DNA of 64,000 nt from an uncultured Fibrobacteraceae bacterium (GCA_964524645.1 CAZGEC010000002.1:93076-157075); one strand, 5' to 3'. Numbered from the stretch's first letter, positions 1-35,050 are shown. Program-made: numbers and translations. The notes: generated by a model not told the origin, from the letters alone.

Positions 1-266
1 AGGCAGGTCCAGGCCAGGACAAAGAAGCTGGAGGGATCATTCCCGATCTCGATGCTGCATTCCCACCCGGAGATGCCGGACGGCTCGGAGATGTTCTCCA
101 GCACCAGGAAGGCCGCAACGATGACGAAGGGCTCGGACTGCCGGCAGTTGCCATCGGTCTCCTCGAACCAGATGCAGATCTGGTCCTGGTCGGGATTCGG
201 TTGGGCTGCGACCCCCGAGCAGAGCAGCAGGGTCGCGAGGCCCAAGAGGATTGAAATACGGCGCAT
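1..266 (-). CDS. N-terminal part of a secreted protein, cut by the window edge; paralog of the 26967..27596 and 34418..35050 family
   Basis: Minus-strand ATG at about 266 encodes MRRISILLGLATLLLCSGVAAQ (signal peptide), then QICIWFEETDGNC...AAFLVLENISEPSGISGWECSIEIGND. This aligns with the N-terminal modules of the proteins at 26967 and 34418. No stop before position 1. Confidence 0.6.
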   Translation of the reverse strand, partial: MRRISILLGLATLLLCSGVAAQPNPDQDQICIWFEETDGNCRQSEPFVIVAAFLVLENISEPSGISGWECSIEIGNDPSSFFVLAWTC

Positions 267-382
267 GGCATCTCCTTCCGGCATCTGGGATCACGGACGA
301 TCAGCGATATGCGGGCCGATGCATAGAAGTCGTTCTCGAGGGGGATTGGTTCCTTTGGAGGAGCCGGCAGCCCGCCGTTGCC

Positions 383-1216
383 TCAGGGTAGGCCCCGCCA
401 GCCTGCCTGCGGCGAAGGGCCGTCCCCTTGCAGGAACCAGTCGGCCATCAATGTAGGACTCACACCGTGGTGAACCGGATTGAAGCGGATGTAGTGGCTC
501 AAGTAGGCCCGGTCCTGCCGATTGACATACAGGTAGAGGATTCCAAAACCGAGGTCAGTCTCGGCAGCACCGATCATCGAGTGCAGTTCGAACCATCCCG
601 GTTGTCCATCGCCGCCGCAGTCGGAACAGTCCACCATCTCGAAAGGATACAGTTCATACGTCGAGTTCATGATGCTGATCGTGCCGACGTTTCCGCCATA
701 GTGGATATCCGTCCCGTCCATGACGACGTCGCGGACTAGCTGCTCACTGTCCGGCAGGGCCGCAATCGGCCGCAGGGTCGGGCGAACCATGGTGACATCG
801 CCTGCCGAGGTGACGGTGCCGCTGGCCCGATACCGCGTTAGCGGATCCGCGTAGCTCTCGTGCCACGCGTAGGTGAGAGTGTCCGCAGAGCACTACAGGA
901 ACAGAACGTGCAGGTTGTCGCGGGTTGGCGCCACAACATTGAGCACCGTGAGATCCCTGCCCGGCCAGGGAACGACCGCGTAGATGATTGCGGATATCGA
1001 TGCCGCCTGGATCTCACAAGATCCGACGCTCCGGACGAACTCGATGGCTCCGATTCCGGATGACCCCATTCCGTGGACGTCTAAGGACAGGACCTCGACC
1101 GTCGGCGATTCCGGTCCTGTGGAATCGTCGTGGTCGCACCCGACCAAAGCCAATACCAGGCTGGCGAGCAGGGAAAGCAGGCACGACGGCCGGCGGCATT
1201 TTCTGGGCATGCTCAT
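383..1216 (-). pseudogene. Lipoprotein-like gene interrupted by a single in-frame TAG (about 893-895). It is either an amber-disrupted pseudogene or a sequencing error; a less likely alternative is two separate genes, 893..1216 and 383..790
   Basis: ORF 893..1216 carries a lipobox (LALVGC). ORF 383..790 lies in the same frame, 102 nt downstream. The intervening 34 codons (CSADTLTYAWHESYADPLTRYRASGTVTSAGDVT) have a protein-like composition. Confidence 0.4.
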
Positions 1217-1285
1217 GTTCTTGAACCCCTCACAGGTCCATTCCCGCGATCTCGAGCGGGCATGCTCGGCGGCCGTGACGCCGGG

Positions 1286-2008
1286 TCAGGCGGCCTGCGT
1301 GTCCGGATCCACCCGCCGCTCTCGCCTGCGGACTCGCAAGACCCAGTAGAGGCCGACGAGCGAGCCAAGGGGGAAGAAGCCGAGGAAGGCCACGGAAAGG
1401 ACCTGGGTCGCCGAGCGAGCGTAGTGGGAAGCGGTCGATCTGAGACGAGCCACGACCAAGGCCGCGATTCCCAGGAACGTCTTGGTGAAGATCACGAAGG
1501 TGGTTGTGGAGGATCCGAATTCCGGGTCCAGCATGCGCTTACGAAAGGCAACGTCGACAGCCGCCCAGAGCAAGAAGAAAAATCCGATGAATATCAGCAC
1601 GTTGCTGTACCGGGAAACGACCCGGGCGAGCGGCTCTGCTCGGTAGCAGGCACGATGGGTCCAGCTCCAGCCGAGAACCGCCAGCATCGAAACGGGTGCG
1701 AGGATGCGCACGGGCATCGGATCTCCGGTTAAGTTCGTCATCGTCGCGCCGATCCCCGATGCCATCCCCGTGCCGATGAGGCCCATCAGCAGCCGCGCGG
1801 AGTCGGTGATGAGCCGCAACCGTCTGGCTACGAGAAGGGGCGCCAGGAGCGCAGCAGCTGCGGCACACCAGATGACGATCTCTGCCGGGAGAGGAAGCGT
1901 CGCACCGCCGAACATCCGCTGGGGATCGAGGATCGCCGCACCGCGCCAGTAGATGACCGGAGCCACGAGGAAGGCGGCGGAAGCTCCGAGCAAGAACGCA
2001 GGCTTCAT
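1286..2008 (-). CDS. Hypothetical polytopic membrane protein
   Basis: Start MKPAFLLGASAAF is preceded by AGGAGGTG. The protein has several hydrophobic helices. No family recognised. Confidence 0.6.
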   Translation of the reverse strand: MKPAFLLGASAAFLVAPVIYWRGAAILDPQRMFGGATLPLPAEIVIWCAAAAALLAPLLVARRLRLITDSARLLMGLIGTGMASGIGATMTNLTGDPMPVRILAPVSMLAVLGWSWTHRACYRAEPLARVVSRYSNVLIFIGFFFLLWAAVDVAFRKRMLDPEFGSSTTTFVIFTKTFLGIAALVVARLRSTASHYARSATQVLSVAFLGFFPLGSLVGLYWVLRVRRRERRVDPDTQAA

Positions 2009-2146
2009 TTCCCACCTCCTGTCGCCGCGGCGCTCCGCAGCTGACGGGGCCCGCGGACACTGGTGGGTGTTGTGCCGCGACCGCAATGCGCCGCGATCAT
2101 AGCAGGAAGCCGGGTTGTTGTCCTTTCTCATCTGCCCCACGCAGCG

Positions 2147-2761
2147 TCACAGCGCCAGGCCGTAGCCCGTCAGCTCCCGCTTCGTGGCCTCGTAGTCGGT
2201 ATGGACGATGCCGTTGATCCCCAGGCTCCGGGCTATCTCCACGAACATGGGACGGTCCTCGATGTAAATCACCTGCCCCGGTTTGACCTGGGCGATGTCC
2301 AGGGCGATGCGGAAGATGTCCGGATCCGGTTTGCGGAAGTGCACGAAGCACGAGGAGATGAAGAAGTCGAGGATCGTCCCGAGCTGGAATTCCCTGATCC
2401 TGTGCTCGTTGAGTTCGCGCCCTTCATTGCTGACGGCCGCGACCTTCAGATTGTGGCGCTCCTTCAGCCGGCGGACCAGCTCGATCATCTCCGCGAAGGG
2501 CCGGGACTGGGCGAACATGAACGCCCGGAAGTCCTCCGGTGAAAAGGAGCGCTCCTTGTAGAACACGACACGCTTGAGGTACTCGCTCAGCGTGAGCTTT
2601 CCCACTTCGTAGGTGTCGAAGGTCATGTGATGCCGCTCGTCCATCTCCTCGTGATCGAGAGCGAAGTTCTCGGCGGCGCGCCGGCGGGCCTTCCGGTCCC
2701 AGCCGTTGGTCAGCAGGACCCCGCCGATGTCGAGAAACAGGGTCGTGATCTGGGCCGTCAT
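2147..2761 (-). CDS. HAD-superfamily hydrolase (subfamily IA-like)
   Basis: N-terminal FLDIGGVL (DxG motif I), KVAAVSN and a C-terminal IEDR-like motif. Confidence 0.8.
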   Translation of the reverse strand: MTAQITTLFLDIGGVLLTNGWDRKARRRAAENFALDHEEMDERHHMTFDTYEVGKLTLSEYLKRVVFYKERSFSPEDFRAFMFAQSRPFAEMIELVRRLKERHNLKVAAVSNEGRELNEHRIREFQLGTILDFFISSCFVHFRKPDPDIFRIALDIAQVKPGQVIYIEDRPMFVEIARSLGINGIVHTDYEATKRELTGYGLAL

Positions 2762-2939
2762 CGTTGTGCCTCCTGAATTGCTTCTACCGGAAAGGACATG
2801 GTTCTACTTCAGCTTCCCCGCCCAGGCGATCAACGCCTGGACCAGGTCCGCGATGCTGTTCCCGGTCCTGGGGTCCGTCAGCCGGCCCTGATCGTCGATC
2901 TTCTCCCGCGCGAAGGGCACCATCACTTCCGGGCGGCTC

Positions 2940-3686
2940 TCACGCCTGGATCCTCTCGAAGAGGTAGCTCCCGATCGCCACCAGGATGAACGCGAGGCCC
3001 ACCATGACCACCAGATCCACGGCCAACCCGAAGGTCGAGACGTTGATCAGCGCGGCCCGCAGTCCGTCGATCCCGTAGGTGAGAGGATCCACCCTGACGA
3101 CGTAATGCATGATCTCGGGCAGGCCCTCGAGCGGGAAGAGCGCGCCCGACAGGAAGAAGATGGGCATCACCAGGAAGTTCATGATGAGCTGGAATCCCTG
3201 CATGTCCTCGATCCGCGAGGCAACGGCCACCCCCAGCGAGGTGAAGATGATCGCCACCAGGATCACGAACACGGCGGCCAGCGGGAGCAGCAGTGCGTGG
3301 TGGAACCGGAAGCCCACGATCAGCGTCAGGAGGAAGACGATCAGGCCTTGGAAGGACGCCACGGTTGCTCCGCCGAGCGTCTTGCCGAGCATGATCTGCC
3401 AGCGCGGCACCGGCGCGACCATCGTCTCCTTCAGGAAGCCGAACTGCCGGTCCCAGATGAGGTCGATTCCGGAGAAGATGGCCGTGAACAGCACGCTCAT
3501 CATGATGATGCCGGGAGCCAGGTACTGGATGTAGTTACCCTCGCCGGCCTCCCGGTATACCTGCCCGAAGCCGAAGCCGAGGGCGACCAGGAAGAGCAGC
3601 GGCTGGCCGAGCGCCCCGATGATCCTGGAGCGGGCCCGGAAGTACTTCTTCACCTGCCGGAGCCAGAGGATGTAGATCGCGCTCAT
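2940..3686 (-). CDS. ABC-2 family transporter permease
   Basis: Six predicted TM helices with ABC-2 permease layout. It overlaps the upstream ATPase gene (ATGA coupling). Confidence 0.8.
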   Translation of the reverse strand: MSAIYILWLRQVKKYFRARSRIIGALGQPLLFLVALGFGFGQVYREAGEGNYIQYLAPGIIMMSVLFTAIFSGIDLIWDRQFGFLKETMVAPVPRWQIMLGKTLGGATVASFQGLIVFLLTLIVGFRFHHALLLPLAAVFVILVAIIFTSLGVAVASRIEDMQGFQLIMNFLVMPIFFLSGALFPLEGLPEIMHYVVRVDPLTYGIDGLRAALINVSTFGLAVDLVVMVGLAFILVAIGSYLFERIQA

Positions 3687-4681
3687 CGGTTTCTCCTGAA
3701 CATCCTGCGCCGCGCCCTCATGCGGTCGACCGCGCTGACCTCTTCCTCGCGGATCGCGCTGCCCGTCAGCGCGATGAAGGCGTCTTCCAGTGATGACGCG
3801 CTGGTCCTGTTCATCAGCTCGCCGGCCGATCCCGTCGCGATGATCGCGCCGTGGTCGATGATGGCGATCCGGTCGGCGACGCGTTCGGCCTCGTCCATGT
3901 AGTGGGTGGTGAAGAAGACCGTCATGCCTTCCCGCCGGTTGACGTCCCTGATGTAGCTCCAGATATGGTTGCGGGTCTGCGGATCGAGGCCGAGCGTGGG
4001 CTCGTCGAGGAACAGGATCTTCGGATGGTGCAGCAGACCCCGGGCGATCTCCAGACGGCGCTTCATGCCCCCGGAATAGGTCTTGACCAGGGCGTTCCTG
4101 CGGTCCCAGAGCTCGACCAGCTTGAGCAGCTCCTCGATCTTGGCCTCCCGGGTGTTCTTCGGAACGTTGTAGAGGACCGCGTGGTAGCGGACGTTCTCCA
4201 GCGCCGTCAGGTCGTCGTCCAGGCTGGGGTCCTGGAACACGATGCCGAAGGACTTCCTGACCGCGTCCTTGTTGCAGGCCGGATCGTTGCCGTCCAGCAG
4301 GATGCGACCCTCGCTCGGCTCCAGCAGGGTCGTGAGCATCTTGATGGTGGTCGACTTGCCGGCCCCGTTGGGTCCCAGGAACGCGAAGATCTCGCCTGCG
4401 CGCACCTCGAACGAGATGCGGTTCACCGCCGTGAATCCGTCGAATCTCCTGACCAGACCCTCGACGACGATGATGCTGGCGGGGTTTGCCGGCGCGCCGG
4501 GTTGCCGCCCGTCCTCGCGCGGTGAGGGGATGGGGGCGTCGGTCTTCTGGGGTAGCTCCACCAAGGTCCCGATCTCCTCGTCGCTGAGGGCCTCGAACAC
4601 CCGGCCGCCATGGATCAGCCGGACCACGGAACCGAATCTCTCGACCAGCATCTGCTGCGACTCTCGTCTGAAATCACGCAT
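3683..4681 (-). CDS. ABC transporter ATP-binding protein with an N-terminal extension
   Basis: Walker A GPNGAGKST, signature YSGGMKRRL and Walker B ILFLDEPT. Start chosen at MRDFRRE; the long upstream extension in the ORF track overlaps other frames. Confidence 0.85.
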   Translation of the reverse strand: MRDFRRESQQMLVERFGSVVRLIHGGRVFEALSDEEIGTLVELPQKTDAPIPSPREDGRQPGAPANPASIIVVEGLVRRFDGFTAVNRISFEVRAGEIFAFLGPNGAGKSTTIKMLTTLLEPSEGRILLDGNDPACNKDAVRKSFGIVFQDPSLDDDLTALENVRYHAVLYNVPKNTREAKIEELLKLVELWDRRNALVKTYSGGMKRRLEIARGLLHHPKILFLDEPTLGLDPQTRNHIWSYIRDVNRREGMTVFFTTHYMDEAERVADRIAIIDHGAIIATGSAGELMNRTSASSLEDAFIALTGSAIREEEVSAVDRMRARRRMFRRNR

Positions 4682-4821
4682 GCCCGACCGCCTTCGGCGT
4701 GCCATTCTTGCTGGACAAGATAGGCGGCACCCCGGCAGCGCTGCCACCGCCCGACCGCGGATGCTCGAGAACGGGCAGCGCTTCGCGTCCCGCCCTTTCG
4801 CAAGAGCCGGATTGACTTACC

Positions 4822-5655
4822 ATGTCGGCTGTGTTCGGGAGCCGTTCCTTGCCCGGTCCGGTCCAGGAGAACGAAGAGATGAGCCAGGATGCGACGATCG
4901 CCGTCAAGGGCTCAGCCGTGGTGGACGACTACGGCATCGACTACACGCGGGCCGTCTGCTCCCAGCTGGACGCGCTGGGCGACCAGTACTGGGAGTGGGT
5001 CCACATCGACCTGCAGCCGGCGCAGCGCCGGCAGCTCGCGGCGGCACAGCCGCAGACAGCGTTTCCGGACTCCTTCCGGGTCTTCGAGAACGCCTGGCTC
5101 GAAGCCAACACGCACATCTCGTGGCGGCTGATCCTCGCCCTCTGGGTGCCCACGGTGATGCTGATGCTGGCGGCGGCGAGGTGGCTGGGGCTGGGCTGGG
5201 CCCGCTTGGTGGGTGCGGCTTTCGGCGGACTGCTGCTGTGGACCCTGGTCGAGTACGTCCTGCACCGCGTCGTCTTCCACCACGAGCCCCGCAACGGGTG
5301 GGAGCGCAGGTTCCACTTCCTGGCGCATGGGATTCATCACAAGGATCCCTGGGATCCGACCCGCCTGGTCTTCCCGCCGCTGGCGGGCTACGGAATCACA
5401 TTGCTCCTGTTCGTCGGGATCCGGCTGGTGCTGCCCCTGGCGCCGTCGCTGGCGACGCTCGCGGGCCTGCTGATCGGCTACCTCGGCTATGATCTCGGCC
5501 ACTACGCTTGGCACCACGCCAGATGCGCGCGGGGATGGCCGCACTTTCTCAAGCGCTACCACCTGGCGCACCATCACAAGAACATGGACTCGCACTTCGG
5601 CGTGAGCCAGCCGCTGTGGGACCTCGTCTTCCGGACCTACGGCCCGCGCCGCTGA
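4822..5655 (+). CDS. Fatty acid hydroxylase / sterol desaturase family membrane protein
   Basis: Histidine boxes HRVVFHH, HGIHHKD, HYAWHH and HLAHHH. The start may instead be M at 4879. Confidence 0.8.
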   Translation: MSAVFGSRSLPGPVQENEEMSQDATIAVKGSAVVDDYGIDYTRAVCSQLDALGDQYWEWVHIDLQPAQRRQLAAAQPQTAFPDSFRVFENAWLEANTHISWRLILALWVPTVMLMLAAARWLGLGWARLVGAAFGGLLLWTLVEYVLHRVVFHHEPRNGWERRFHFLAHGIHHKDPWDPTRLVFPPLAGYGITLLLFVGIRLVLPLAPSLATLAGLLIGYLGYDLGHYAWHHARCARGWPHFLKRYHLAHHHKNMDSHFGVSQPLWDLVFRTYGPRR

Positions 5656-5908
5656 GTACCCAGCAGCATCTTCGCTTGCTTCCTGAGGTGGTCGACGCTG
5701 GGGCGACGCGGCCGTGATCCGGACATTATGTGGCCTTCCTTTCGCTGATGCCCGTGACTTGCTCGCTCGGGCCGAAAAGAAGGTTGTATGCGCGGAATCA
5801 GCAGAGGTGGGTTTGACCCTTCCCGCAGGCCAGGTGGCGTCCTTCGCTCGCCAATGACCATTATCCCCGCGTGTCGCCGTCGTGTCAAGAATGGCCGGAT
5901 GGCGCGCG

Positions 5909-6370
5909 CTACACATCGCCGGGCAGCAAGTCCGGATGGTGTTCTTCGAGCCAGACCAGAACGTCATGTGCAAACTGCACGGCCTCATGGTAGATTTCGC
6001 GGGCCTCAGCCTCGGAGATTTCTCCAGACGCGTCATAGTCGACAATGTTGCGCTTGCGGCGACAGGCATCGAAGTAATCGCTTCTTGCGGATGGCAGGGA
6101 TTCCATCAGCTGAGAAAGCGCCTGGAAGGTAATCCAGTGATGAGATTCGCCGCCAGTACGGTAGCCAGAGGAGCGCAGGACCATCGTTGCGAGTTGCAGG
6201 ATGGCATTGTAAGCAGTCGAGTAGCGACGGTCCGGAGAGAGTTGCTCTATGGCTGCGTCCGCGAGATCGCGCTGAACGATGCCCCAGAGAGCCTTGATCT
6301 CCTCGGACGAGGATTGATGCTGGCGAAGCCGGCGCTCACGCAACCAACGTTGCAAGCTCATCATCGTCAC
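5909..6370 (-). CDS. HEPN-like toxin component of a HEPN/MNT pair
   Basis: Small alpha-helical protein immediately downstream of the nucleotidyltransferase gene and overlapping it. The domain assignment rests mainly on context. Confidence 0.5.
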   Translation of the reverse strand: MTMMSLQRWLRERRLRQHQSSSEEIKALWGIVQRDLADAAIEQLSPDRRYSTAYNAILQLATMVLRSSGYRTGGESHHWITFQALSQLMESLPSARSDYFDACRRKRNIVDYDASGEISEAEAREIYHEAVQFAHDVLVWLEEHHPDLLPGDV

Positions 6371-6950: not shown

Positions 6951-6968
6951 GTGGCCTCTCCGGGACAT

Positions 6969-8034: not shown

Positions 8035-8039
8035 CGGCG

Positions 8040-9970: not shown

Positions 9971-10699
9971 CTAGCGGTACATGTCCTTCACGCCGCCCCA
10001 GGTGCTTTCCTGGTTGGCGACCGTGGAACAGGCGTTGGTGGCGCCCGGCGTGGCGTAGGAGACGTAGTAGCCGTCTTCCACCGTGCAGCCCGAGCCGGTG
10101 GACTCGGTGCCGTTCAGGCAGATGATGTACCACTCGCCGCCGACCGCATCGCAGTCGTCGCAGCGGGCTCCGCCGGCGGGATCGTAGCTCCCGTCGGGGC
10201 CGACGCCAGTGATTCCATAGTAGGTCATGCAGTCGCCCGAATCAGGAATCCCGTAGCCGACGCCGTCCACCACGGTGCCGATCGAGAAGTCGGCCACGCA
10301 GTCGCCGTCGGCGTCGATGTCCGTGCCGATCGGGTAGAGGCCCGCGTCGAAGTCGGCCAGCAGCAGGATGTTGTTGCCGCCGTTCTCGATCCAGCCATCA
10401 GCCAGCTCCAGGTCGGGGTTGACGGCGGCATCGCCGACCACGAAGTAGCCCGTTGCGCCCACGGAGTAGCCGTTCAGGCTGATGATGTTGTCGATGAGAC
10501 CGGAGGAGGCGCCCTCGCCCTCGACCAGGACAATGGTCAGGCCGTCCAGGCTCTCGCCGGGATTGCCGCACAGCTCGATGAACTCGTGATCATCGCCGCT
10601 GATGTCGTTGGAGACCCACTCGTTGATGACCACGGCGTTGGCTGCTCCGGCGATGGCCAGGCAGGCCGCCATCAGGACGGTAAGCATAATCTTGCGCAT
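9971..10699 (-). CDS. Secreted protein with a lamin-tail-domain-like N-terminus and the shared C-terminal WGGVKDMYR tail
   Basis: Signal peptide MRKIMLTVLMAACLAIAGAANA. LTD-like motif VVINEW..ND.SG.D.EFIELCGNPGESLDG. Ends STWGGVKDMYR-COOH. Confidence 0.75.
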   Translation of the reverse strand: MRKIMLTVLMAACLAIAGAANAVVINEWVSNDISGDDHEFIELCGNPGESLDGLTIVLVEGEGASSGLIDNIISLNGYSVGATGYFVVGDAAVNPDLELADGWIENGGNNILLLADFDAGLYPIGTDIDADGDCVADFSIGTVVDGVGYGIPDSGDCMTYYGITGVGPDGSYDPAGGARCDDCDAVGGEWYIICLNGTESTGSGCTVEDGYYVSYATPGATNACSTVANQESTWGGVKDMYR

Positions 10700-11062
10700 G
10701 TCGCGTGACCCCCTTCAGGGTTGGTTCCAGGTCCTTGGCCCTTGACGGTAGCAGAAGTGACGAGCATCACCTCCTTGCCGGTTAGGACGTGGCAAACCGT
10801 CGAGCCGCCGCATCGACGGCTGCTTACATTATTTTTCTAGTGTTGTCATGATATCACAAAATCATCTGGATGTAAAGGCACTTCGGGGCCGAAGGGTGGA
10901 CAGCAACGCAGTCCATGGAACTTTATTTCTGACATAACCTAAAAAAGCCACGCGGGCCGGATCCGCGCCCTGGCCCGTTCGGAACCGAGGCCGGAGCGGG
11001 CCGCGCCCGGCCTCATTGCTCCGCCCGCTCCCGTGCATTACACTGCCAACGGAGGTGGAACG

Positions 11063-12319
11063 ATGTTCCGGCACCCCATGAGCCGCCGGCAGTTCCTGCA
11101 GGCGGCCGCCCGCACTGGGCTGACGGCGGGCGGAGCCGGTCTGCTGGTGGCCAGTCCCGAGGCTCTCGTCCGGCTGCTGGGGGAGGGCAGCGCCGAGGCC
11201 CTCGCCGCCACCGATCTGCAGGCCCTCATCCGGCAGGCCCCCGTCGCGCGCTACTGGGTCTCGACCCTCACCCCCGGTGTCGACTGCGCCAGCTGCCACG
11301 CCCCGGGCGAGGTCGATCCGCACGCCCCCTTCGATCACGGGGGCCAGGGGATCGTCCGCTGCCTGCTCTGCGCCCAGCGCTGCCTGATCGAACCGGGCGA
11401 GCGCGGCCGCTGCCGGGCCCGCATCAACGTGAACGGGGAGCTGCGCACCCTGGTCTACGGGCGGCCCATCACCATCCACGTGGATCCCATCGAGAAGAAG
11501 CCCTTCTACCACTTCCTGCCCGGCCAGCAGGCCTTCTCCCTGGCGACCTCCGGCTGCCCGCTCCGCTGCAAGTTCTGCCAGAACTGGGAGATCTCGCAGG
11601 CCCGGCCCGAGGACTACGAGAGCCGCATCGTGCCGCCCGCCGATCTCGTCGGTGCGGTGCGCGACCGCCACGCGCCGATCGTCGCCTTCACCTACAACGA
11701 GCCGACGGTCTTCACGGAGTACCTGACGGACATCGCGCGCCTGGCCCGGGCGCAGGGCGTGCATCCCGTGCTGGTCAGCTGCGGCTTCATGAACGAGGAG
11801 CCGCTGACCGAGATGTGCGAGGTGCTGGACGCGATCAAGATCGACTTGAAGGGCTATACCGAGACGTTCTACCAGGAGGTCTGCGGGGCGGCGCTGCAGC
11901 CCGTGCTCCGCAGCATCGCCCAGGTCTCCCGCAGCGGGACCCACCTGGAGCTGGTGAACCTGGTGGTGCCCACGCTCAACGACGCGGATGCCATGCTGAC
12001 CGAGCTGACCAAGTGGGTGGCGGGCGAGCTGGGGCCGGACGTCCCGGTGCACTTCACCCGCTTTCATCCCGACTACCAGCTCCAGAACCTGCCGCCGACG
12101 CCGGTGGCCACGCTCGAGCGCGCGCGGGCCATCGCCCTCGCGCAGGGTCTGCACTACCCCTACGTGGGCAACGTGCCGGGCCATCCCGGCAACAACACCT
12201 ACTGCCCGGGCTGCGGCCAGGTCGTGATCGAGCGGCAGGGCTTCTTCATCCGGCGCAACGACATCGTGAACGGCCACTGCCGCTGGTGTGGGCAGGCCAT
12301 CGCGGGCGTGTGGAGCTGA
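11063..12319 (+). CDS. amrS: AmmeMemoRadiSam system radical SAM enzyme (AmrS-like) with a twin-arginine (Tat) signal
   Basis: RBS GGAGGTGG precedes MFRHPMSRRQFLQAAARTGLTAGGAGLLVASPEA (SRRxFLQ Tat motif). CPLRCKFCQNWEIS is a CxxxCxxC motif. Confidence 0.85.
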   Translation: MFRHPMSRRQFLQAAARTGLTAGGAGLLVASPEALVRLLGEGSAEALAATDLQALIRQAPVARYWVSTLTPGVDCASCHAPGEVDPHAPFDHGGQGIVRCLLCAQRCLIEPGERGRCRARINVNGELRTLVYGRPITIHVDPIEKKPFYHFLPGQQAFSLATSGCPLRCKFCQNWEISQARPEDYESRIVPPADLVGAVRDRHAPIVAFTYNEPTVFTEYLTDIARLARAQGVHPVLVSCGFMNEEPLTEMCEVLDAIKIDLKGYTETFYQEVCGAALQPVLRSIAQVSRSGTHLELVNLVVPTLNDADAMLTELTKWVAGELGPDVPVHFTRFHPDYQLQNLPPTPVATLERARAIALAQGLHYPYVGNVPGHPGNNTYCPGCGQVVIERQGFFIRRNDIVNGHCRWCGQAIAGVWS

Positions 12320-12359
12320 CGCTCCCCGAGCGGGGCCGGCGCGCGAAGAGGAGGATGTC

Positions 12360-13904
12360 ATGAGGTCCAGGGCGGCCGCGGGCCTGCTGGTCCTGTCGCT
12401 GCTGGCGGTGGCGGGCGGTCTGTACCTGATTTCCGCCACGCCCACAGCGGGCCCGGGTCCGCGACCCATGGCCGTCGCGGGACGCTTCTATCCCGCCGAC
12501 GGAGGCCGGTTGCAGGCCGCCGTGGAAGCCTTTCTGGAGGACGCGGTCCCGCCGCGCCAGGAACGGCCGGTCGCGCTGGTGGCGCCCCACGCCGGTTACG
12601 TCTTCTCCGGCCAGATCGCGGCCGATGCCTTCCGGCAGGCCAGCGGCCACGATTACGACCTGGTGGTGATCCTCGGCACCAACCACACGCAGCCGCCCTT
12701 CCGCGGCGTCTCGTTCTACCCGGGCGATGGCTACCTGACGCCCCTCGGCCTGGCTCCCATCGACCGCGAGGCGACCCGGGCCCTGGTGGCCGCCGATCCC
12801 GACTTCGGCTTCCGGCCGGAAGTGCACCGCGAGGAGCACTCGGTGGAGGTCCAGGTCCCCTTCGTGCAGGTCGCCCTGCCGGGGGTGAAGATCGTGGCGG
12901 CGGTGGTGGGGGACTCCGATCCCGACTTGTGCGGCCGTCTCGGGCGCGCGCTGGCCCGGGTGCTCGCCGGCCGCCGGCCGCTGATCGTGGCCAGCAGCGA
13001 CCTGAGCCACTACCCCGGGTACGAGGGATCCATGGCCGCGGATCGCGTGACGCTGACCGCCGTGGCCGCGGGCGATCCCGCCGAGCTGCCCGGGACGCTG
13101 GCGCGGGAGATGCGCAAGGGAATCTCCGGGCTGGCCACCTGCGCGTGCGGGGAGGGGCCGATCCTGGCCGCCATGACGGCGGCCCGCGAGCTGGGTGCAC
13201 GTTACGGCCGCATCGTCAGCCATGCCAACTCGGGCGATTCGGCCGTCGGGGACCCGGAGCGCGTGGTGGGCTACGGCGCCGTGGTCTTCGCGCCCGGTCC
13301 GACCTGGAGCGATACCATGGCGCTGCGTCTTCCTGTGCCGGCCGCGGCGGACGTGCCCCTGGGCGATGCGGACAAGCGCACGCTGCTGCGCCTGGCCCGC
13401 GAGACCATCCGGCGCTACCTCGCCACCGAGACCGTGCCCCTGGCCCGGGACCTCTCGCCGGTCCTCTGCCGGCGGCAGGGGGCCTTCGTGACGCTCGAGA
13501 AGCACGGCCAGCTCCGCGGCTGCATCGGCCACATGGCCGAGGACCGCCAGCTGGCCCAGGTGGTCGGCGCCATGGCCCTGCAGGCCGCCCTCAACGATCG
13601 GCGCTTTCCGGCCCTACAGCCGTCCGAGCTGTCCCAGTGCGAGATCGAGATCTCGGTCCTCACTCCGTTCCGGCCCGTCTCCGGTCCCGGGGCGATCACG
13701 ATCGGACGGGACGGCGTGCTGCTGCGCAAGGGGGGGCGCTCGGCGGTCTTCCTGCCCCAGGTGGCGCCCGAGCAGGGCTGGGACCGCGAGCAGATGCTGG
13801 ACCAGCTCTGCCGCAAGGCCGGCCTGCCGGCCGGGAGCTGGCGCGAGGGTGCCCAGCTCTTTACCTTCCAGGCGGAGGTCTTCGGCGAGTCGGACCTCCA
13901 CTGA
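12360..13904 (+). CDS. AmrB (Memo-like) - AmrA (AMMECR1) fusion protein with an N-terminal signal/anchor
   Basis: N-terminal half AGRFYPADG...APHAGY is Memo family. C-terminal half GAFVTLEKHGQLRGCIGHM is the AMMECR1 core. The N-terminus MRSRAAAGLLVLSLLAVAGGLYLI is hydrophobic. RBS GAGGAGGA. Confidence 0.85.
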   Translation: MRSRAAAGLLVLSLLAVAGGLYLISATPTAGPGPRPMAVAGRFYPADGGRLQAAVEAFLEDAVPPRQERPVALVAPHAGYVFSGQIAADAFRQASGHDYDLVVILGTNHTQPPFRGVSFYPGDGYLTPLGLAPIDREATRALVAADPDFGFRPEVHREEHSVEVQVPFVQVALPGVKIVAAVVGDSDPDLCGRLGRALARVLAGRRPLIVASSDLSHYPGYEGSMAADRVTLTAVAAGDPAELPGTLAREMRKGISGLATCACGEGPILAAMTAARELGARYGRIVSHANSGDSAVGDPERVVGYGAVVFAPGPTWSDTMALRLPVPAAADVPLGDADKRTLLRLARETIRRYLATETVPLARDLSPVLCRRQGAFVTLEKHGQLRGCIGHMAEDRQLAQVVGAMALQAALNDRRFPALQPSELSQCEIEISVLTPFRPVSGPGAITIGRDGVLLRKGGRSAVFLPQVAPEQGWDREQMLDQLCRKAGLPAGSWREGAQLFTFQAEVFGESDLH

Positions 13905-20179: not shown

Positions 20180-20183
20180 GGAA

Positions 20184-25101: not shown

Positions 25102-26721
25102 CTAGGGCTGCTCCGCAGGCAGCGGACTCCACTCGCCCACCGCCTCGGCGTGTACCTTGACCGGTCCGCGGCTGGTCCAGGTCTGTTCGTAGTTGTAGTT
25201 CCAGCCCAGGTACTCCGATGCGCCGCCGCCCTCGGTGGTGATCAGGACGCGGTTCGAGAGCACTCCGATGGAGTCGGCCACCTCGCCGGGCCGCTCGCGA
25301 TCGCCGCCCTGCGGATCCACGTGAACCCAGCCGTAGCCCGGCAGGTAGACCTGGCTCCAGCGGTGGAAGACGTCGTCGGTGGAGGCCTCGTCGCCGCGGA
25401 CCACCACCGAGCCCACGTAGCGCGCCGGGATCCCCGCCGCGCGGCACATGGCGATGAACAGGAAGGTGTACTCGCTGCAGGAGCCGCTGCCCCGCTCCAG
25501 CACGCGCGGGGCCACGTTCCAGCCCCCCGACAGCTCGTAGTGCAGGCGGTCGCGGATGTAGCGGTGGATCCGCCGCATCATCCAGTAGGGATTGGTCTCG
25601 TCGCCCACGGCCTCCTTCACGGCGTTGACGATGATGGGATCGGTGATGCGGTACTTGTCCTCGTCCACCAGGTAGGCCTGCCGGACGTCCTTGGGGATGT
25701 CCTTCAGCGCGCCTACCCGGTGGGGATAGACGTAGTGGCGGACGGCGGCCAGCTCCACGTCCGCCGTCATCTTGACCTGCCGGCGCTGGGCCAGCGCCAG
25801 GTCGGTGAAGGCGTAGTGGGCCACCGGCTGCTGCCAGCGGTCCTTCAGCACGTCCTTCGGCGGAGGGTCGAGGACCAGCGCGCCCAGCAGCTTCTGGTTG
25901 GGCAGATCCCGCGGCTGAGCGATGTAGACGTCCAGGGTCAGGAGCTGACCAGGACCGTAGTTGCGGAACTCGTGCGTGAGCAGCAGGTGCAGCCGGTGCT
26001 TGTCGGAGATACGGAAGGGCTGGTCGTCCTCCAGCACGAGCCGGTCGATGCGGTCGTTCTGGTAATCGGCGCACCAGAGGGTCTTCCCGTCGCTGGCCAG
26101 CCCGCGCGCGTAAGGCCCTGGCGCGTCGAGGCTCAGCACGACCTCGCCGTCGTGGGCGGGGTCCATCAGGTAGATCCGGTCCTCGCGGCGGTCGGCGCTC
26201 CACAGGTAGCCCTGCCAGAAGGTCAGGCCGGTGGGCGTGGTCATGGGCGCGGTGAAGCGCTTGATCGTGGTGCCGTCCTCGGTGGAGATCTGGCAGATCA
26301 CGTCCTCCAGCGGGTCGCTCAGCCAGAGGTAGCGGCCGTCCCAGGCCAGGCCCTCCGGTCCCGCGGTGGGGGCTTCCAGGCTGTGGACGGTGATGCCGCT
26401 GTCGACGTCCAGGGCCAGGATGCGGTTCTCCTCGCCGTCGATGCACCACAGGAGCTTGCCGTCCCAGGCCAGGCCGCGCGGCACGAAGCCGGGCGCGGGC
26501 AGGATCCGGCGCACCTCGCCGCTGGCCGGATCGATGGCGTACAGCTGGTCGGTGAGCTGATCGGCGAGCCAGAGCTGATGGCCGTCCCAGGTCAGGCCGG
26601 TGGGGGCCGTGGCAGGGGTGGACACGGAACCGAGCACGTCGCCGGGCGTGGCGCCGGCGGCCGGAGCCAGCAGCAGCGCGAGCGCCGCGGCGAACACGAG
26701 AACGAGGCTGGATCGAATCAT
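25102..26721 (-). CDS. Secreted beta-propeller protein with a C-terminal transglutaminase-like cysteine protease domain
   Basis: Signal peptide. Repeated GLAWDG.LW blades. GSCSEYTFLFIAMCRAAGIPARYVGS is the transglutaminase-like core. Confidence 0.75.
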   Translation of the reverse strand: MIRSSLVLVFAAALALLLAPAAGATPGDVLGSVSTPATAPTGLTWDGHQLWLADQLTDQLYAIDPASGEVRRILPAPGFVPRGLAWDGKLLWCIDGEENRILALDVDSGITVHSLEAPTAGPEGLAWDGRYLWLSDPLEDVICQISTEDGTTIKRFTAPMTTPTGLTFWQGYLWSADRREDRIYLMDPAHDGEVVLSLDAPGPYARGLASDGKTLWCADYQNDRIDRLVLEDDQPFRISDKHRLHLLLTHEFRNYGPGQLLTLDVYIAQPRDLPNQKLLGALVLDPPPKDVLKDRWQQPVAHYAFTDLALAQRRQVKMTADVELAAVRHYVYPHRVGALKDIPKDVRQAYLVDEDKYRITDPIIVNAVKEAVGDETNPYWMMRRIHRYIRDRLHYELSGGWNVAPRVLERGSGSCSEYTFLFIAMCRAAGIPARYVGSVVVRGDEASTDDVFHRWSQVYLPGYGWVHVDPQGGDRERPGEVADSIGVLSNRVLITTEGGGASEYLGWNYNYEQTWTSRGPVKVHAEAVGEWSPLPAEQP

Positions 26722-26966: not shown

Positions 26967-27596
26967 ATGAAGAAATGGATCACGCTGCTCGCCGCTACAA
27001 CCTTGCTGACCGCTGGACCGGCGCTGGCCCAGTGCAACAATGGGCCGGACGAGATCTGCGTCGTGTGGGACTATCTGGGCGCGGACTGCCAGAACTGCAC
27101 GCAGTTCTACGGCGGTATCCTCAGCGCCTACGTCGTCCTGCAGAATGCCAGCACGCCGGCAGGGATCCTGGGCTTCGAGTTCATGCTCCGCAACCAGGGC
27201 GGAGCCACGTTCATGCCCCCGCCCACGGACATCATCCTCGCGTACATCCTGCCCTACCCGGGGATCAACGTCCTGACGCCGCCCGAGTTCATCGTGGGAC
27301 TACCCTACCCGGTGCCCTGGAGCCCCGCCATCCCGCTGGTCGAGATCCAGATGCTGGTCCTCGACTTCACCTGCTGGTGCTTCGGTGTTGCGCCCGTGCC
27401 CACTCCCTCCATACCAGGGCACATGGCTTTCGCGGACGGGGGCGATCCCGGGAACATCCTCCCTATGTATCCTTGCACGGGTCCGAACTGGGACTCCACC
27501 TTCATGACCTGCCTCAACTGCGAGTTCTGTCCGCCCGGCCCGCCGATCGTCACCGACAACATGACCTTCGGCGGCGTGAAGGCCATCTATCGCTGA
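26967..27596 (+). CDS. Secreted Cys-rich protein of the C-terminal GVKxxYR-tail family, with the shared N-terminal module
   Basis: RBS GAGGAGG. Signal peptide MKKWITLLAATTLLTAGPALAQ. N-terminal module ...ICVVWDY...AYVVLQNASTPAGILGFE. Ends MTFGGVKAIYR-COOH. Confidence 0.75.
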   Translation: MKKWITLLAATTLLTAGPALAQCNNGPDEICVVWDYLGADCQNCTQFYGGILSAYVVLQNASTPAGILGFEFMLRNQGGATFMPPPTDIILAYILPYPGINVLTPPEFIVGLPYPVPWSPAIPLVEIQMLVLDFTCWCFGVAPVPTPSIPGHMAFADGGDPGNILPMYPCTGPNWDSTFMTCLNCEFCPPGPPIVTDNMTFGGVKAIYR

Positions 27597-27614
27597 CGGG
27601 GCCGGTACAAAGCA

Positions 27615-27642: not shown

Positions 27643-27680
27643 GTCTGTACTGCCGACAGGCCCGCCGGTTGGCCTACGCC

Positions 27681-29366
<1,686 letters not shown>

Positions 29367-29400
29367 GCGATGGCTCCCCGGCCAGGACGCTCGCTTGCGG

Positions 29401-30774: not shown

Positions 30775-30945
30775 GCTGGCTCCTCGGGATCGGGATCCGG
30801 ATCCGGGCCCTCGCACGGCCCGCACGGCTCCCTATCTACTGGCAACCGTCCCCAGGCGCAACGCCGAACCGCCTCGCAACGGCCTCAGAAAGCGCGTCTC
30901 GGCGCCGGCCTGCCGCCCGGAGATGATCTTGCCACATCCACGTCC

Positions 30946-30961
30946 GCCCGTGCTATGATCC
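30946..30961 (+). promoter_or_regulatory. Extended -10 promoter-like motif GCCCGTGCTATGATCC
   Basis: 16 of 18 positions identical to the motif at 26858. Lies about 133 nt upstream of 31092. Confidence 0.35.
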
Positions 30962-31091
30962 GGCGGTGCTCCGGCTCGCCCGCAGCCCTGGAGTCCCGGA
31001 TTTGAATCCCCACGTGAAACAGGTCCGTGCATTCTACCCCGATGCTGTTCGGCCATGGTCGCGAGGTCGCTACCCCGACAGGAGGTAACCC

Positions 31092-32072
31092 ATGGGTCGG
31101 CGCTGGATCTCCTGCTTCGGCTTGCTCGGCCTGCTGATCTGCGCCGCTGCGTCCGCCGGCACTGTTTTCGAGCCGCCGGCGGTTCGCCTGACGTTCGATG
31201 CCGACGAGCGGATCCACCGTCCTCTGGACATCGTCTGGGACGAGCACGGGACCGGCTACCTGCTGTGCGAGGGCTCGTGCAAGGTGCTGGTGCTCGACGA
31301 GGCGTTCCAGATCGTGGGGGAATTCGGAGGCTGCGGCGAAGGTCCGGGCGAGATCGGCCGGGGCGTGAGCCTGGAGATACTGGGCGACCACCTCTACGTC
31401 TTCCAGCAGTACAGACTGGACATCTTCGACACGGCGGGCGAACACCTGGGGCGGGTCAATCTGGGGCGCGATGTCCAGGACACGGAGGTCTCCGCGCGTG
31501 GGATTCTCGGCAGCTCCCGGGACGGCGACCAGATGCTGACCGTGTTCGACCGGGACGGCGCCGTCGTGGGCGAGGACGGCCCGCAATGCCGGGGCGAGAC
31601 CTGGGACGAGAAGTACCGCAACTGCGGGACGATCACCGTCTTCGCCGATGATGGGGAAATCCTGGTGCTGGATCGCGTCTCGGCCGTGCTGAACCGGTTC
31701 ATCGGAGGACAGTGGCGCGAGAAATCCCTGGGCATCAAGAGCGGTAGGGTGTGGGAGGAGGGCGGGGCCGTGTACAAGCGCGCGGCCATTTCGGCCGTCT
31801 GCGGACTTCCTGGAAAGGGCCTGGCTCTGCTCCTCTACAAGGAAACCGAGAATGCAAACAAGCAGATCCTGGGCCTTCTCTCTCCGGACCTTGCGATCGC
31901 GAAGATCGCCGAGGTGGACAAGGAGCCGTCCATCCGGCGCCTGAAATTCTCGCCGCGAGGCGAGCTCTGCGTGCTGGACTGGCAGGCCGAGGTCAGGGTA
32001 TTCCCTCCGGAGCTGCTCGTTCCGTACCTTATGGGCAGGGGTGAGCAGGAACCGCGGAGGACGACTCCCTGA
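31092..32072 (+). CDS. Secreted hypothetical protein, probably a beta-propeller
   Basis: Signal peptide MGRRWISCFGLLGLLICAAASAG. RBS GGAGG. Confidence 0.55.
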   Translation: MGRRWISCFGLLGLLICAAASAGTVFEPPAVRLTFDADERIHRPLDIVWDEHGTGYLLCEGSCKVLVLDEAFQIVGEFGGCGEGPGEIGRGVSLEILGDHLYVFQQYRLDIFDTAGEHLGRVNLGRDVQDTEVSARGILGSSRDGDQMLTVFDRDGAVVGEDGPQCRGETWDEKYRNCGTITVFADDGEILVLDRVSAVLNRFIGGQWREKSLGIKSGRVWEEGGAVYKRAAISAVCGLPGKGLALLLYKETENANKQILGLLSPDLAIAKIAEVDKEPSIRRLKFSPRGELCVLDWQAEVRVFPPELLVPYLMGRGEQEPRRTTP

Positions 32073-32120
32073 ACCGGGGAGACCTTCGCGGGGTCCACGA
32101 GCTTCAGGACATTATCACCA

Positions 32121-34391
32121 ATGACGCCGCCGGGATGGGGAGGGGATTCCATGCCAGGCAAGCGGGATATTCGATTCCTGAGCGGACGGGCCGTCCTTTC
32201 TCTTCTCGTGCTTCTTCTGGCGTCCCAGCTGATCTCTTGCGCGCGCACGAATAGACCCCCCTCGATCATCTACGACGATGCGCTTGGCTACGACGCGGAC
32301 CGGGACTCCGTGGGAATCACTGCTTTCCAGGCGCTGCCCCCGTCCGAGCGGAAGGCACGGATCAAGGCCGCGGGGCGGTACCTGGACAAGGCGCACGAGC
32401 TGGAGGAGAGGGAGGCCTGGTGGTGGGAGAGGATGACGAAGGTCGACCTCAACCCGAGCAGCATCGACGAGCTGTTTCACGTCTACGGTGAAAGCCGCCT
32501 GGTGAACTGGACCCTGCACAACCTGACGCGGGCGGTTGGTCTCGATCCCTCCAACGTGGAGGCCTGGCACCTGCGCGCCAGGATCCTCACGGTCCTGGGA
32601 GACTGGGACCGCGCCGGCTCCTGCTACGACCGGGCGTTCGACGCATTGCGGGCGAATCCCCGCGAAGACGAAACGCAGATCCGTCTGAGGCTCGCCCTGG
32701 ACTACGCCTGGCTGTGCCGGGACATGGGCCTTCAAGACAAGGCGCTGTCCCTCGTGGATGTCGCACGGCAGATCGACCCCGACGACCAGGAGGCGGAACT
32801 GCTGGGGGGCCTGCTCAAGGCCGATGCCGGCCTGTTCGACGAGGCCATCGAGATCGCGGCGAACCTCGCCACCATTCCCTACGAGCGATTCGGCTTCGCT
32901 CATGCGCGCTCCGATTACGGATCCCGCTGGATCATGGCCATGGCCTATCTCCGCCAGGGCGAGAGCCAGCTGGCCTGGTACATCATGGGCGAGCCGTCCA
33001 CGACGGGGCTCACCATGCCCTACTTCAACCATTACTGGAACGACATGGGGCTGGTCTCCGAGATGGCTCAGAAGATGGGAGAGGCCCGGAGATATTACTA
33101 CCTGGCGATGGCCTTCACCCCCTACTCGATCTACTTCCCCTGGATCAAGTACTACGGCCTGCAGAGCATCGACGGGGATCACGATGCCGAGATCCCCATG
33201 TACCTGTCCTACGACCGCTATTACGTCTGCGGATCACTCTACTTCTTCGGGACGTATCTCGTCGCCGGTATGGCCAATTCGCAACATGCCTGGTACAAGG
33301 GGCAGGCGGCCTCGCTGGCGAAAAGCGCCCTCGATGCCTGCATCAACCGAGGCATCATGGGGCCGCAGGCGCTCAGCGTCCGCGCGCAGTACTTCATGCA
33401 GTTGGGCGAGTACGACGCGGCGAAGGCCGATCTCGTCCACGCATACGAGCAGTTCGCGAAGGGGGGCGAGGGCGACGCCTGGACCTGCATGTATCTCGGT
33501 CAGGTCGAGATGAATGCCCGGAACTACCCGTCGGCTGAGACCTACCTGCGCAAGGCCGTGGCGATCGACTCGACCCTGACCCAGGCCTGGCGGGCCCTGG
33601 GCGTGGCGCAGATCAACAGCGGCGACCGGACCGGCGGCCGGCGCTCCTTCGACGTCGCGATCGAGCAGGATCCCACCTCCGTGACGGCCTGGTACAACCG
33701 CGGCTTGCTGAGTTGCAACGAGGGCCGGTGGGCCGACGCCTGTCAGGACCTGCTGGTGGCCACCCGGCTCGCCCCGGAGAACGAGGATGCCATCCACCTG
33801 CTGCAGGCCGCGGGCCGACAGCTGGCGAAGTCCGAGGGGCGGGGCGGGAGCGGCTCATCCAGCGTGAAGGTCGTCGACGTGGATGCGCTCGAAAAGACCG
33901 CCGGCGGCGCGCCGAGGAGTGTGCCGGGAATGACCGTCCCGGGCGTGGGATCGGTGAGAAGGGCTGAGGGGAAAGCGGTTCCCGAGGTCCAGATGGACAG
34001 CCGGGAGTGCCTGGAGAAGTACCGTGCCGAGCCTTCCGTGGAGAACCGGACGCGGCTGGCGAGGGCCTACCTGAGCGAGGACGTGCCGGACGAGGCCCTG
34101 AACCTGCTGCTGCCGCACTGGAACCGGGATCTGACGAGCGAGGAGATGCTCATCGTCCTGCAGATCGATCGGGGACGAGGCGACGCGAACCGGGCGCGGC
34201 AGCTGATCAGCGAGATGAAGAGCGGCACCCGGGACATCCAGGATCCCATGGTCTGGGCCCTCGCGGCCTTCATCTGCCTCGATACCGGCTTTCCGGCCGA
34301 TGGCCTCTCCGCCCTGGACCGCGCCATCGAACTCGACCCCACCAACGTCTCCCTCAAGAGCTACAGGATCATCCTCGAGAAGAACCTCTGA
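32121..34391 (+). CDS. TPR-repeat lipoprotein
   Basis: Lipobox LISC. Multiple TPR-like helical repeats. Confidence 0.75.
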   Translation: MTPPGWGGDSMPGKRDIRFLSGRAVLSLLVLLLASQLISCARTNRPPSIIYDDALGYDADRDSVGITAFQALPPSERKARIKAAGRYLDKAHELEEREAWWWERMTKVDLNPSSIDELFHVYGESRLVNWTLHNLTRAVGLDPSNVEAWHLRARILTVLGDWDRAGSCYDRAFDALRANPREDETQIRLRLALDYAWLCRDMGLQDKALSLVDVARQIDPDDQEAELLGGLLKADAGLFDEAIEIAANLATIPYERFGFAHARSDYGSRWIMAMAYLRQGESQLAWYIMGEPSTTGLTMPYFNHYWNDMGLVSEMAQKMGEARRYYYLAMAFTPYSIYFPWIKYYGLQSIDGDHDAEIPMYLSYDRYYVCGSLYFFGTYLVAGMANSQHAWYKGQAASLAKSALDACINRGIMGPQALSVRAQYFMQLGEYDAAKADLVHAYEQFAKGGEGDAWTCMYLGQVEMNARNYPSAETYLRKAVAIDSTLTQAWRALGVAQINSGDRTGGRRSFDVAIEQDPTSVTAWYNRGLLSCNEGRWADACQDLLVATRLAPENEDAIHLLQAAGRQLAKSEGRGGSGSSSVKVVDVDALEKTAGGAPRSVPGMTVPGVGSVRRAEGKAVPEVQMDSRECLEKYRAEPSVENRTRLARAYLSEDVPDEALNLLLPHWNRDLTSEEMLIVLQIDRGRGDANRARQLISEMKSGTRDIQDPMVWALAAFICLDTGFPADGLSALDRAIELDPTNVSLKSYRIILEKNL

Positions 34392-34417
34392 CGATCACCA
34401 GCTCTTTCAGCGCGGTT

Positions 34418-35050
34418 TCACTCCTCCTGGCTGCGGTACAGCGCCTTCACCGCGCCCCAGCTGCTGGCGATCACGGGGACGACATCGACGTTCACGCCCG
34501 CCACGGGCACGTCGTAGGAGGCCGAGGAGGGTTGGAGCGGGACAAGGGTTCCGGGCACGCCGTCGTTGGCTTGGTAGAATGCATGGATTCCATCGAAGGG
34601 ATCGATGGGGGGAGGGGGCTGGATGTACAAGCGGCCCCATTCGTCGAGGGAGTGCACGACGATGCCAATCTCGACGACGGGTATGGCGTAGGCCCACGGG
34701 ATCGGTGGTGCTGCCCCGAGAATCCAGTATGGATCACAGTTCGGAATCTGAATACCGCCCATGAGTGACCACGAGCACCAGTCATAAATCGTTCCCTCCA
34801 TGACGCCGTGGATGCCGATGCCCTGGACGCCGCTCTCGCCGCTGATGTTGATGAGCACGAGGTAGGCCATGACCGTTTGGTGTGGCTCCGTGGTGTGGAA
34901 GGTGGTGGTGAGCCCTTCCTGGTCGAAGTAGATGCCGACGATGTCCTGTTCCTCGGCCGTGGCATGGCCGGCGGGGAGTAAGACGAGGAGCGCCGTCAGG
35001 ACGACCGGCATGACGAGGACGCGCCCCTGCAGCGGGTATCTGGAGAGCAT
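34418..35050 (-). CDS. Secreted protein of the GVKxxYR-tail family, with the shared N-terminal module
   Basis: Start MLSRYPLQGRVLVMPVVLTALLVLLPAGHATA with a GGAGG RBS. N-terminal module DIVGIYFDQ...AYLVLINISGESGVQGIGIHGVMEG. The WGAVKALYR tail is followed by SQEE. Confidence 0.75.
   Translation of the reverse strand: MLSRYPLQGRVLVMPVVLTALLVLLPAGHATAEEQDIVGIYFDQEGLTTTFHTTEPHQTVMAYLVLINISGESGVQGIGIHGVMEGTIYDWCSWSLMGGIQIPNCDPYWILGAAPPIPWAYAIPVVEIGIVVHSLDEWGRLYIQPPPPIDPFDGIHAFYQANDGVPGTLVPLQPSSASYDVPVAGVNVDVVPVIASSWGAVKALYRSQEE

Follow-up and report, generated by a model that had tools for sequence, protein, structure and literature searches.

A large, unnamed family of secreted proteins with a predicted cohesin-like fold and, in its short form, a C-terminal tail in uncultured bacteria

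Three related genes for secreted proteins lie in a 64,000-nt stretch of DNA from an uncultured Fibrobacteraceae bacterium (GCA_964524645.1 CAZGEC010000002.1:93076-157075); the whole of this stretch is referred to below as the window. The genes and their products, here called PA, PB, and PC, had been singled out by a sequence-only reading of the window, which described a conserved module that immediately follows their signal peptides and spans about 60 residues. The features of the three genes, in window coordinates and with residues counted as amino acids (aa), are as follows:

1..266, minus strand: PA, the 5′ part (88 codons) of a family gene cut by the window edge, recognized by its translation, ribosome-binding site, and profile match
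60..185, minus strand: PA conserved N-terminal stretch, aa 28-69, DQICIWFEE...GISGWE, equivalent to domain strands 1-3
26967..27596, plus strand: PB, a complete family gene, 209 aa, with signal peptide, domain, Cys-rich linker, and tail
27048..27179, plus strand: PB conserved N-terminal stretch, aa 28-71, DEICVVWDY...GILGFE (the "module" of the sequence-only reading), with predicted strands 29-33, 50-59, and 67-76
27048..27521, plus strand: entire beta-sandwich of PB, aa about 28-185, whose fold is predicted to be cohesin-like (AlphaFold2, Foldseek)
27564..27593, plus strand: PB C-terminal tail TFGGVKAIYR, aa 200-209, modeled as a short helix (pLDDT about 70)
34418..35050, minus strand: PC, a complete family gene, 210 aa, with signal peptide, domain, and tail SWGAVKALYR followed by SQEE
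34814..34945, minus strand: PC conserved N-terminal stretch, aa 36-79, DIVGIYFDQ...GVQGIG
34433..34462, minus strand: PC C-terminal tail SWGAVKALYR, aa 197-206

The PA reading frame starts at an ATG at position 266 with a GGAGA ribosome-binding site 6 nt upstream, and its product begins with MRRISILL. Signal peptides comprise aa 1-21 in PA (cleavage between VAA and Q), aa 1-21 in PB (between ALA and Q), and aa 1-32 in PC (between ATA and E). The three proteins are indeed homologous right after these signal peptides: in BLASTP comparisons, the N-terminal stretch of PA was 37% identical to that of PB over 51 aa (E = 2e-8) and 39% identical to that of PC over 44 aa (E = 1e-6). The C-terminal 100 aa of PB and PC also aligned, with 31% identity (E = 4e-9). 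The three proteins were then compared with a family profile built solely from members outside the window. PB matched at profile positions 1-194 (E = 1.7e-60), PC at positions 5-194 (E = 2.4e-48), and PA at positions 1-85, unbroken up to the window edge (E = 1.9e-23). At these E-values the similarity is far above chance, and PA, PB, and PC are three paralogues in one protein family.

Orthologues of conserved length were found in several metagenomes for both PB (58-88% identity) and PC (71-91% identity). A word-indexed homologue search returned close orthologues alone for these two proteins and no match for PA. The ratio of nonsynonymous to synonymous substitution rates (dN/dS) between PB and its orthologue at L001 (L-numbers denote related loci outside the window) is 0.23, and the GC content at third codon positions (GC3) of the family coding frames in the window is 0.76-0.83. 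After its orthologues, PB is closest, at 36-38% identity over the full length, to the family genes of loci that encode dockerin-like and PorU-like proteins, which are described below. PA is cut before any tail; since short tailed proteins and long, untailed multi-domain proteins are both found among its best relatives, its placing in the "tail family" by the sequence-only reading is only putative.

The expectation, drawn from the truncated PA gene, that the family continues beyond the window proved correct. A profile search of 1.84 billion cluster representatives (50% identity clusters) retrieved 1,125 proteins at E ≤ 1e-3, of which 455 reached E ≤ 1e-10; grouped at 50% identity, the family comprises no fewer than 1,125 clusters. 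In a host scan that covered one genome per GTDB species and was seeded on the tail pattern, family genes were located mostly in metagenome-assembled genomes (MAGs) of Candidatus Krumholzibacteriia, and also in MAGs of Latescibacteria and in MAGs labeled uncultured Fibrobacteraceae or simply bacterium. A metagenome scan for the family yielded 10 loci, mostly short. Neither Pfam nor NCBIfam (Pfam-A 2025 copy and NCBIfam release 20) contains a relevant family for PA, PB, PC, or 86 collected members, profiles of 10 and 86 sequences included, and sequence searches of the PDB with single proteins and profiles gave no family match. No description of the family was found in the literature searched for the host phyla, cohesin, dockerin, the type IX secretion system (T9SS), and its sortase PorU.

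Family proteins have one of two architectures, with profile matches spanning positions 1-200 in proteins of roughly 200 aa and about 25-185 in long ones. The short form (185-220 aa) matches the profile end to end. PB and PC, the two complete proteins of the window, show its layout: a Sec signal peptide of the signal peptidase I type (cleaved mostly between AxA and Q) is followed by the domain, by a short linker usually beginning at a Cys, and by a 10-residue tail, [ST]WGxVKxLYR. After the signal peptide, short-form proteins start with AQ(I/V)DPDPDGIGIYFD ... AYLxLTNxS...GVSGWE. The long form (600-2,100 aa) has no tail and carries two to four copies of the domain (profile about 24-176), one immediately after the signal peptide and the others set apart by runs of immunoglobulin-like (Ig-like) domains of the HYDIN/ASH/DUF1573 type. 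Long proteins end with FlgD_ig/Por_Secre_tail (...KIMLLK), the T9SS sorting domain of ~80 aa; this domain is absent from PB, PC, and every open reading frame (ORF) of the window. The two forms coexist in one genome, since the L039 contig carries both a short tailed member (4578-5195, minus strand) and a 1,204-aa, three-copy, T9SS-anchored member (10001-13615, plus strand). The latter is followed, 17 nt on, by the gene for a papain-type peptidase that carries this sorting domain too. A predicted signal-peptidase site consisting of AxA followed by Gln is present in PA, PB, and 65% of the 86 family members. Cleavage at such a site would leave an N-terminal Gln, a situation reminiscent of the pyroglutamate "Q-rule" in secreted proteins of Bacteroidetes.

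The residue pattern reported by the sequence-only reading recurs across the family as GIxIYFD in strand 1, AYLVLxNxS in strand 2, and GxxGWE in strand 3 of the predicted fold. The columns conserved in both architectures extend well past it: in profile numbering, they are D28, G31, F34, D35, Y54, L55, L57, S61, G65, G68, W69, and E70, further G88, N92, P97, F99, VG101-102, P106, P108, L115, P134, and S139, and also PG141-142, P157, G163, VA169-170, and N173. Y33 (80% / 58%) and N59 (71% / 45%) reach that conservation level solely in the stand-alone proteins. All 137 domain copies mapped in long proteins span profile positions about 24-176, and among 158 proteins inspected none had the first 60 residues without the remainder, barring proteins cut by contig ends. 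Because the conserved columns span the entire domain, the ~60-residue motif is its strongest part rather than a module of its own: it is the best-conserved N-terminal third of a single domain of ~155 residues. Only the short tailed proteins conserve a pair of Cys residues, at profile positions 42 and 176, which suggests a disulfide that fastens the tail linker at its base to the domain.

To the structure of the domain, an AlphaFold2 model of PB built from 86 family sequences provides a guide; an alignment of 10 sequences had reached a predicted local distance difference test (pLDDT) score of only 46. The model (pLDDT 90.8, predicted template modeling score 0.82) is one beta-sandwich of 9-10 strands, located at residues 29-33, 50-59, 67-76, 89-94, 107-116, 121-131, 137-142, 153-157, 164-169, and 181-183. 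The sandwich is followed by a lower-confidence linker and then by a short helix across the tail. The supposed 60-residue module corresponds to strands 1-3 of this sandwich. When the model was compared by Foldseek with the PDB library, the top 17 matches were all cohesins (17 of 17; E from 4e-4 to 1e-2, probability about 1.0), among them 2vo8, 4fl4_K, 5m0y_A, 3fnk, 3ghp, 6kgc_A, 4wi0_A, 3l8q, 2vn5, and 1g1k. Template modeling scores (TM-scores) normalized to the target were 0.23-0.57 (0.36-0.57 for single-cohesin chains), and sequence identity was 8-18%. The nine-stranded flattened beta-sandwich (jelly-roll) that characterizes cohesins is predicted by the PB model. Since no sequence method detects the resemblance, it holds at the level of fold only. 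The sequence-only reading had not recognized the module as a described domain, a view that a match to a known adhesin or carbohydrate-binding fold would overturn. It is overturned by half: Pfam and hhalign made no assignment in sequence, and the predicted fold matches cohesins. The family itself is thus unnamed in databases, and its fold is of an already known kind.

The 10-residue tail is strictly C-terminal in the short form. In the wider form [ST][WF]GxVKx[LIM]YR that defines the tail family of the window, it ends a few residues or less from the stop codon in PB, PC, and nearly all of the 92 inspected proteins shorter than 260 aa, the exceptions being mostly cut by contig ends, and its W, G, and K residues are conserved at 90%, 92%, and 95%, respectively. 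In the PB model, the tail is predicted to be an exposed, flexible appendage. Two secreted proteins of the window that do not belong to the family also carry it:

9971..10699, minus strand: 242-aa protein that ends in the tail STWGGVKDMYR and differs in its N-terminal part; it matches the family profile at positions 173-194 only
49556..50257, minus strand: 233-aa protein with the tail SFGHIKGLYR and a weak N-terminal match of the ExeM/NucH type; it matches the family profile in the tail only

Because both proteins carry the tail on unrelated N-terminal parts, the tail behaves like a portable C-terminal tag. No sorting-signal model in NCBIfam covers it. The protein encoded at 9971-10699 has no Pfam or NCBIfam match; by eye it had appeared similar to lamin-tail-domain proteins, a candidate assignment that Pfam does not support. 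An arylsulfotransferase-like (ASST) beta-propeller protein (48195-49445, plus strand) adjoins the tail-bearing gene at 49556-50257. Small secreted proteins with the tail and unrelated N-termini are also encoded at L009 2542-3615, L028 5356-6114, and L035 473-1183. In tail-bearing proteins of this kind, the tail reads [ST][WF]GxVKx[LM]YR, and a Cys is usually found 11-13 residues upstream of it. The strict tail pattern occurs at no fewer than 597 places in GTDB species genomes (at least 597; 22 confirmed as relatives of the domain query) and at at least 600 places in metagenome contigs; divergent members of the family may account for some of the unconfirmed places. Five loci (L007 6678-9197; L029, L023, L025, and L027) encode a PDZ-GAF-SpoIIE (PP2C phosphatase) protein in the vicinity of family genes. 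PDZ domains read free C-termini, and this protein was considered as a reader of the tail; the candidate was rejected, as the gene adjoins a family gene in L007 only and lies kilobases away in L029, L023, L025, and L027.

In loci outside the window, family genes often stand side by side: two to four of them form a tandem array in L011, L016, L018, L023, L025, L027, L030, L032, L033, L037, and L042. A conserved order is seen in these surroundings: yceG and a few further genes come first, then one or two genes whose products are small and secreted, then the two to four family genes, and last a gene for a large C25 protein. The order holds in L016, L023, L025, and L042, that is, in all four loci with enough downstream DNA, which represent distinct lineages; L025 lies on a complete Latescibacteria chromosome, OY970173. 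L030 has the same locus start, and its contig ends early. The conserved-order loci occupy the following coordinates:

L016, 5031-12131
L023, 3616-7966
L025, 3385-10827
L042, 8966-16152, with a family gene at 11323-12021 and, at 9977-10624, the gene for a protein whose last 67 aa are dockerin-like
L030, 76-2818 (partial)

The large downstream protein has the composition Propeptide_C25/Peptidase_C25/FlgD_ig. Its best NCBIfam match is the T9SS sortase PorU (E = 1e-42), at 146 bits and thus far short of the 420-bit cut-off. Identity between the C25 proteins of L016 and L025 is only 29%, so the gene order has outlasted considerable divergence. The small proteins encoded upstream, present beside family genes in L016, L023, L025, L030, and L042, have a 60- to 90-residue C-terminal segment with two D-x-D-x-N/S-x3-N/D-x2-D loops, a hydrophobic stretch after each loop, and a terminal Cys-Pro. 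A five-sequence profile of this segment was compared with all PDB sequences and matched EF-hand proteins (over one loop) and dockerins (over both repeats) only. The dockerin matches were 2y3n_B (E = 1.2e-3), 4wi0_B (4.7e-3), 4u3s_B (0.012), and 5k39_B/5m0y (0.037), with several more above E 0.1. The entries 4wi0 and 5m0y are cohesin-dockerin complexes, and their cohesin chains are among the Foldseek matches of the PB model.

The neighbors of PA, PB, and PC in the window include genes for a HAD hydrolase, a TPR protein, a REC-GcvH response regulator, a transglutaminase/propeller protein, and an acetolactate-synthase-like gene. The transglutaminase gene (25102-26721, minus strand) is divergently upstream of PB and encodes a secreted protein with a beta-propeller (Vgb_lyase/NHL-like repeats) and a transglutaminase core; its pairing with PB is kept in the orthologous metagenome contigs L001 and L002. 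Directly beside PC (35282-36103, minus strand), a response-regulator receiver is fused to a glycine-cleavage H-protein domain of the lipoyl-carrier type, an output domain that is unusual in two-component regulators. GC content is 63-67% in the first 12 kb of the window and 70-75% between 12 and 26 kb, with a strong AT skew around 14-16 kb.

We favor, with moderate confidence, the explanation that secreted or cell-surface proteins of Krumholzibacteria- and Latescibacteria-type bacteria use the domain as a cohesin-like binding module. Such a domain would most likely mediate protein-protein docking, assembling or holding proteins at the cell surface, and its partner would most likely be of the dockerin type. 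In the long proteins, the domain would be held on an Ig stalk with the T9SS sorting domain as the anchor; in PB, PC, and other short proteins, the sorting domain may be replaced by the tail as a localization or attachment signal. Docking is supported by the related loci, not by the window, because these loci place family genes between dockerin-like and PorU-like genes.

The likeness to the cohesins of cellulosomal scaffoldins (type I/II, PF00963) lies in the similar size, in the modeled sandwich of 9-10 strands, in the occurrence both as single modules and as repeats on long surface-anchored proteins, and in the proximity, in related loci, of dockerin-like proteins with duplicated calcium loops. 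Repetition on a surface-anchored scaffold is a property of the 600- to 2,100-aa relatives with T9SS domains and is not a measure applicable to the single-domain PB and PC. Unlike cohesins, the family domain has no detectable sequence similarity to PF00963, is found in uncultured, Gram-negative-type hosts of the Fibrobacterota-Chlorobiota-Bacteroidota (FCB) superphylum rather than in Firmicutes, and would have as its anchor a T9SS sorting domain or a 10-residue tail in place of SLH domains or sortase; glycoside hydrolases were not among the genes observed near family members. The neighbor protein resembles dockerins (NF041540, 2y3n_B, 4wi0_B, 5k39_B) in its two calcium-type loops, hydrophobic helix segments, and C-terminal Cys, but its matches are below curated thresholds. 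The family is linked to T9SS cargo (FlgD_ig PF13860/Por_Secre_tail PF18962) by the sorting domain of its long members and to PorU by the tandem short members directly upstream of the PorU-like gene in four loci. In contrast to such cargo, PB and PC have the 10-residue tail instead of a sorting domain, and the PorU-like proteins, as noted above, score far below the NCBIfam cut-off.

Several observations weigh against a cohesin-like docking role. PA, PB, and PC are each single and lie among unrelated housekeeping genes, and no dockerin-like ORF, T9SS sorting-domain protein, or C25 peptidase is encoded in the 64-kb window. The TM-scores of the structural matches are moderate and come from a PDB-only comparison. 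Pfam Cohesin (PF00963) did not match PA, PB, or PC at E ≤ 1 or the 86 members at E ≤ 0.1, and an hhalign comparison of the family profile with a CipA cohesin, whose query sequence had been validated against 1AOH, returned a probability of 0.1%. The dockerin assignment of the neighbor is itself weak: one neighbor protein matches the NCBIfam model dockerin_GC ("GC-type dockerin") at E = 4e-4, below the cut-off, none matches Pfam Dockerin_1, and hhalign of the C-terminus with the CelS dockerin was negative. Finally, a beta-sandwich of such size could equally bind carbohydrate, and the docking partner is a predicted one.

The domain may accordingly be asked to fit another function, that of a carbohydrate-binding or general adhesin sandwich that tethers the cell or secreted proteins to polysaccharide or particles, the likeness to cohesins then reflecting a shared jelly-roll topology. 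In long Ig-repeat proteins the domain sits at the tip of a stalk, as is typical for fibrillar adhesins; secreted peptidases and further cargo of the T9SS type are frequent among the neighbors; and adhesin and glycosidase accessory domains appear among the lower Foldseek matches (ranks 19-40). Yet cohesins make up all of the top 17 structural matches, with no carbohydrate-binding module among them, and the dockerin-like segment of the conserved neighbor points to a protein partner. We consider this function unlikely, though far from negligible.

The cohesin-like reading can be extended to a whole system, in which the family, its dockerin-like neighbors, and the PorU-like sortase would form a T9SS-coupled surface assembly of the cohesin-dockerin type in bacteria of the Krumholzibacteria and Latescibacteria type. 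In such a system, the tail would serve as a new minimal C-terminal sorting or attachment signal, replacing the 80-residue T9SS domain on many unrelated small secreted proteins. This extension is tentative, and we regard it as rather unlikely.

The short tailed proteins might also be subunits of a pilus- or layer-like surface polymer, in which the tail or an end strand of one subunit inserts into the next and a C25 (gingipain/PorU-like) peptidase performs maturation, as in type V pili. Like the type V pilins FimA/Mfa, they are small secreted beta-sandwich paralogues encoded in tandem, in arrays of two to four, and the C25-family peptidase gene is immediately downstream in four loci; the exposed and flexible tail of the model would suit insertion. 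Their signal peptides, however, are of the signal peptidase I type (AxA-Q context) and lack the lipobox of type V pilins, which are lipoproteins, nor does the model resemble the two-domain fold of FimA, with no pilin among the top 50 Foldseek matches. Moreover, the same tail occurs on unrelated domains, and the C25 protein best matches PorU, a sortase that serves all T9SS cargo. We judge a polymer role to be improbable.

The idea of a self-contained module of ~60 residues with an independent fold, shuffled onto different "tail-family" proteins, is contradicted by the data and has very little probability left. It is understandable, as the first 45-60 residues past the signal peptide are the most conserved part and BLASTP of PB with PC does not report this stretch alone, so that the proteins can look modular at first. 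Nevertheless, PB and PC align over their remaining length, the family profile matches full-length proteins, the copies in long proteins never stop short of position about 176, AlphaFold yields a single sandwich, and the window proteins with the tail and other N-termini lack the stretch. The claim that the similarity is limited to about 60 residues must therefore be given up. Chance similarity or noncoding ORFs, for which one could invoke the 63-75% GC content of the window and its many spurious long ORFs, are contradicted by profile E-values of 1e-23 to 1e-60, orthologues of conserved length, the GC3 of the coding frames, and the dN/dS value, and can be practically dismissed.

The interest of the locus lies less in the N-terminal motif than in a family that has no name, the two ways in which its proteins end, and the place that its genes keep between dockerin-like and PorU-like genes in related genomes. 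The family is large (>1,000 clusters at 50% identity) and belongs to phyla known from metagenomes alone. Even if the cohesin-like reading is not true, a defined domain boundary and a profile are now available for annotating thousands of "hypothetical proteins." If it is true, assembly of the cohesin-dockerin type would reach Gram-negative-type FCB bacteria and would be tied there to type IX secretion, with testable pairs formed by the domain and its dockerin-like neighbor and by the domain or the sortase and the tail.

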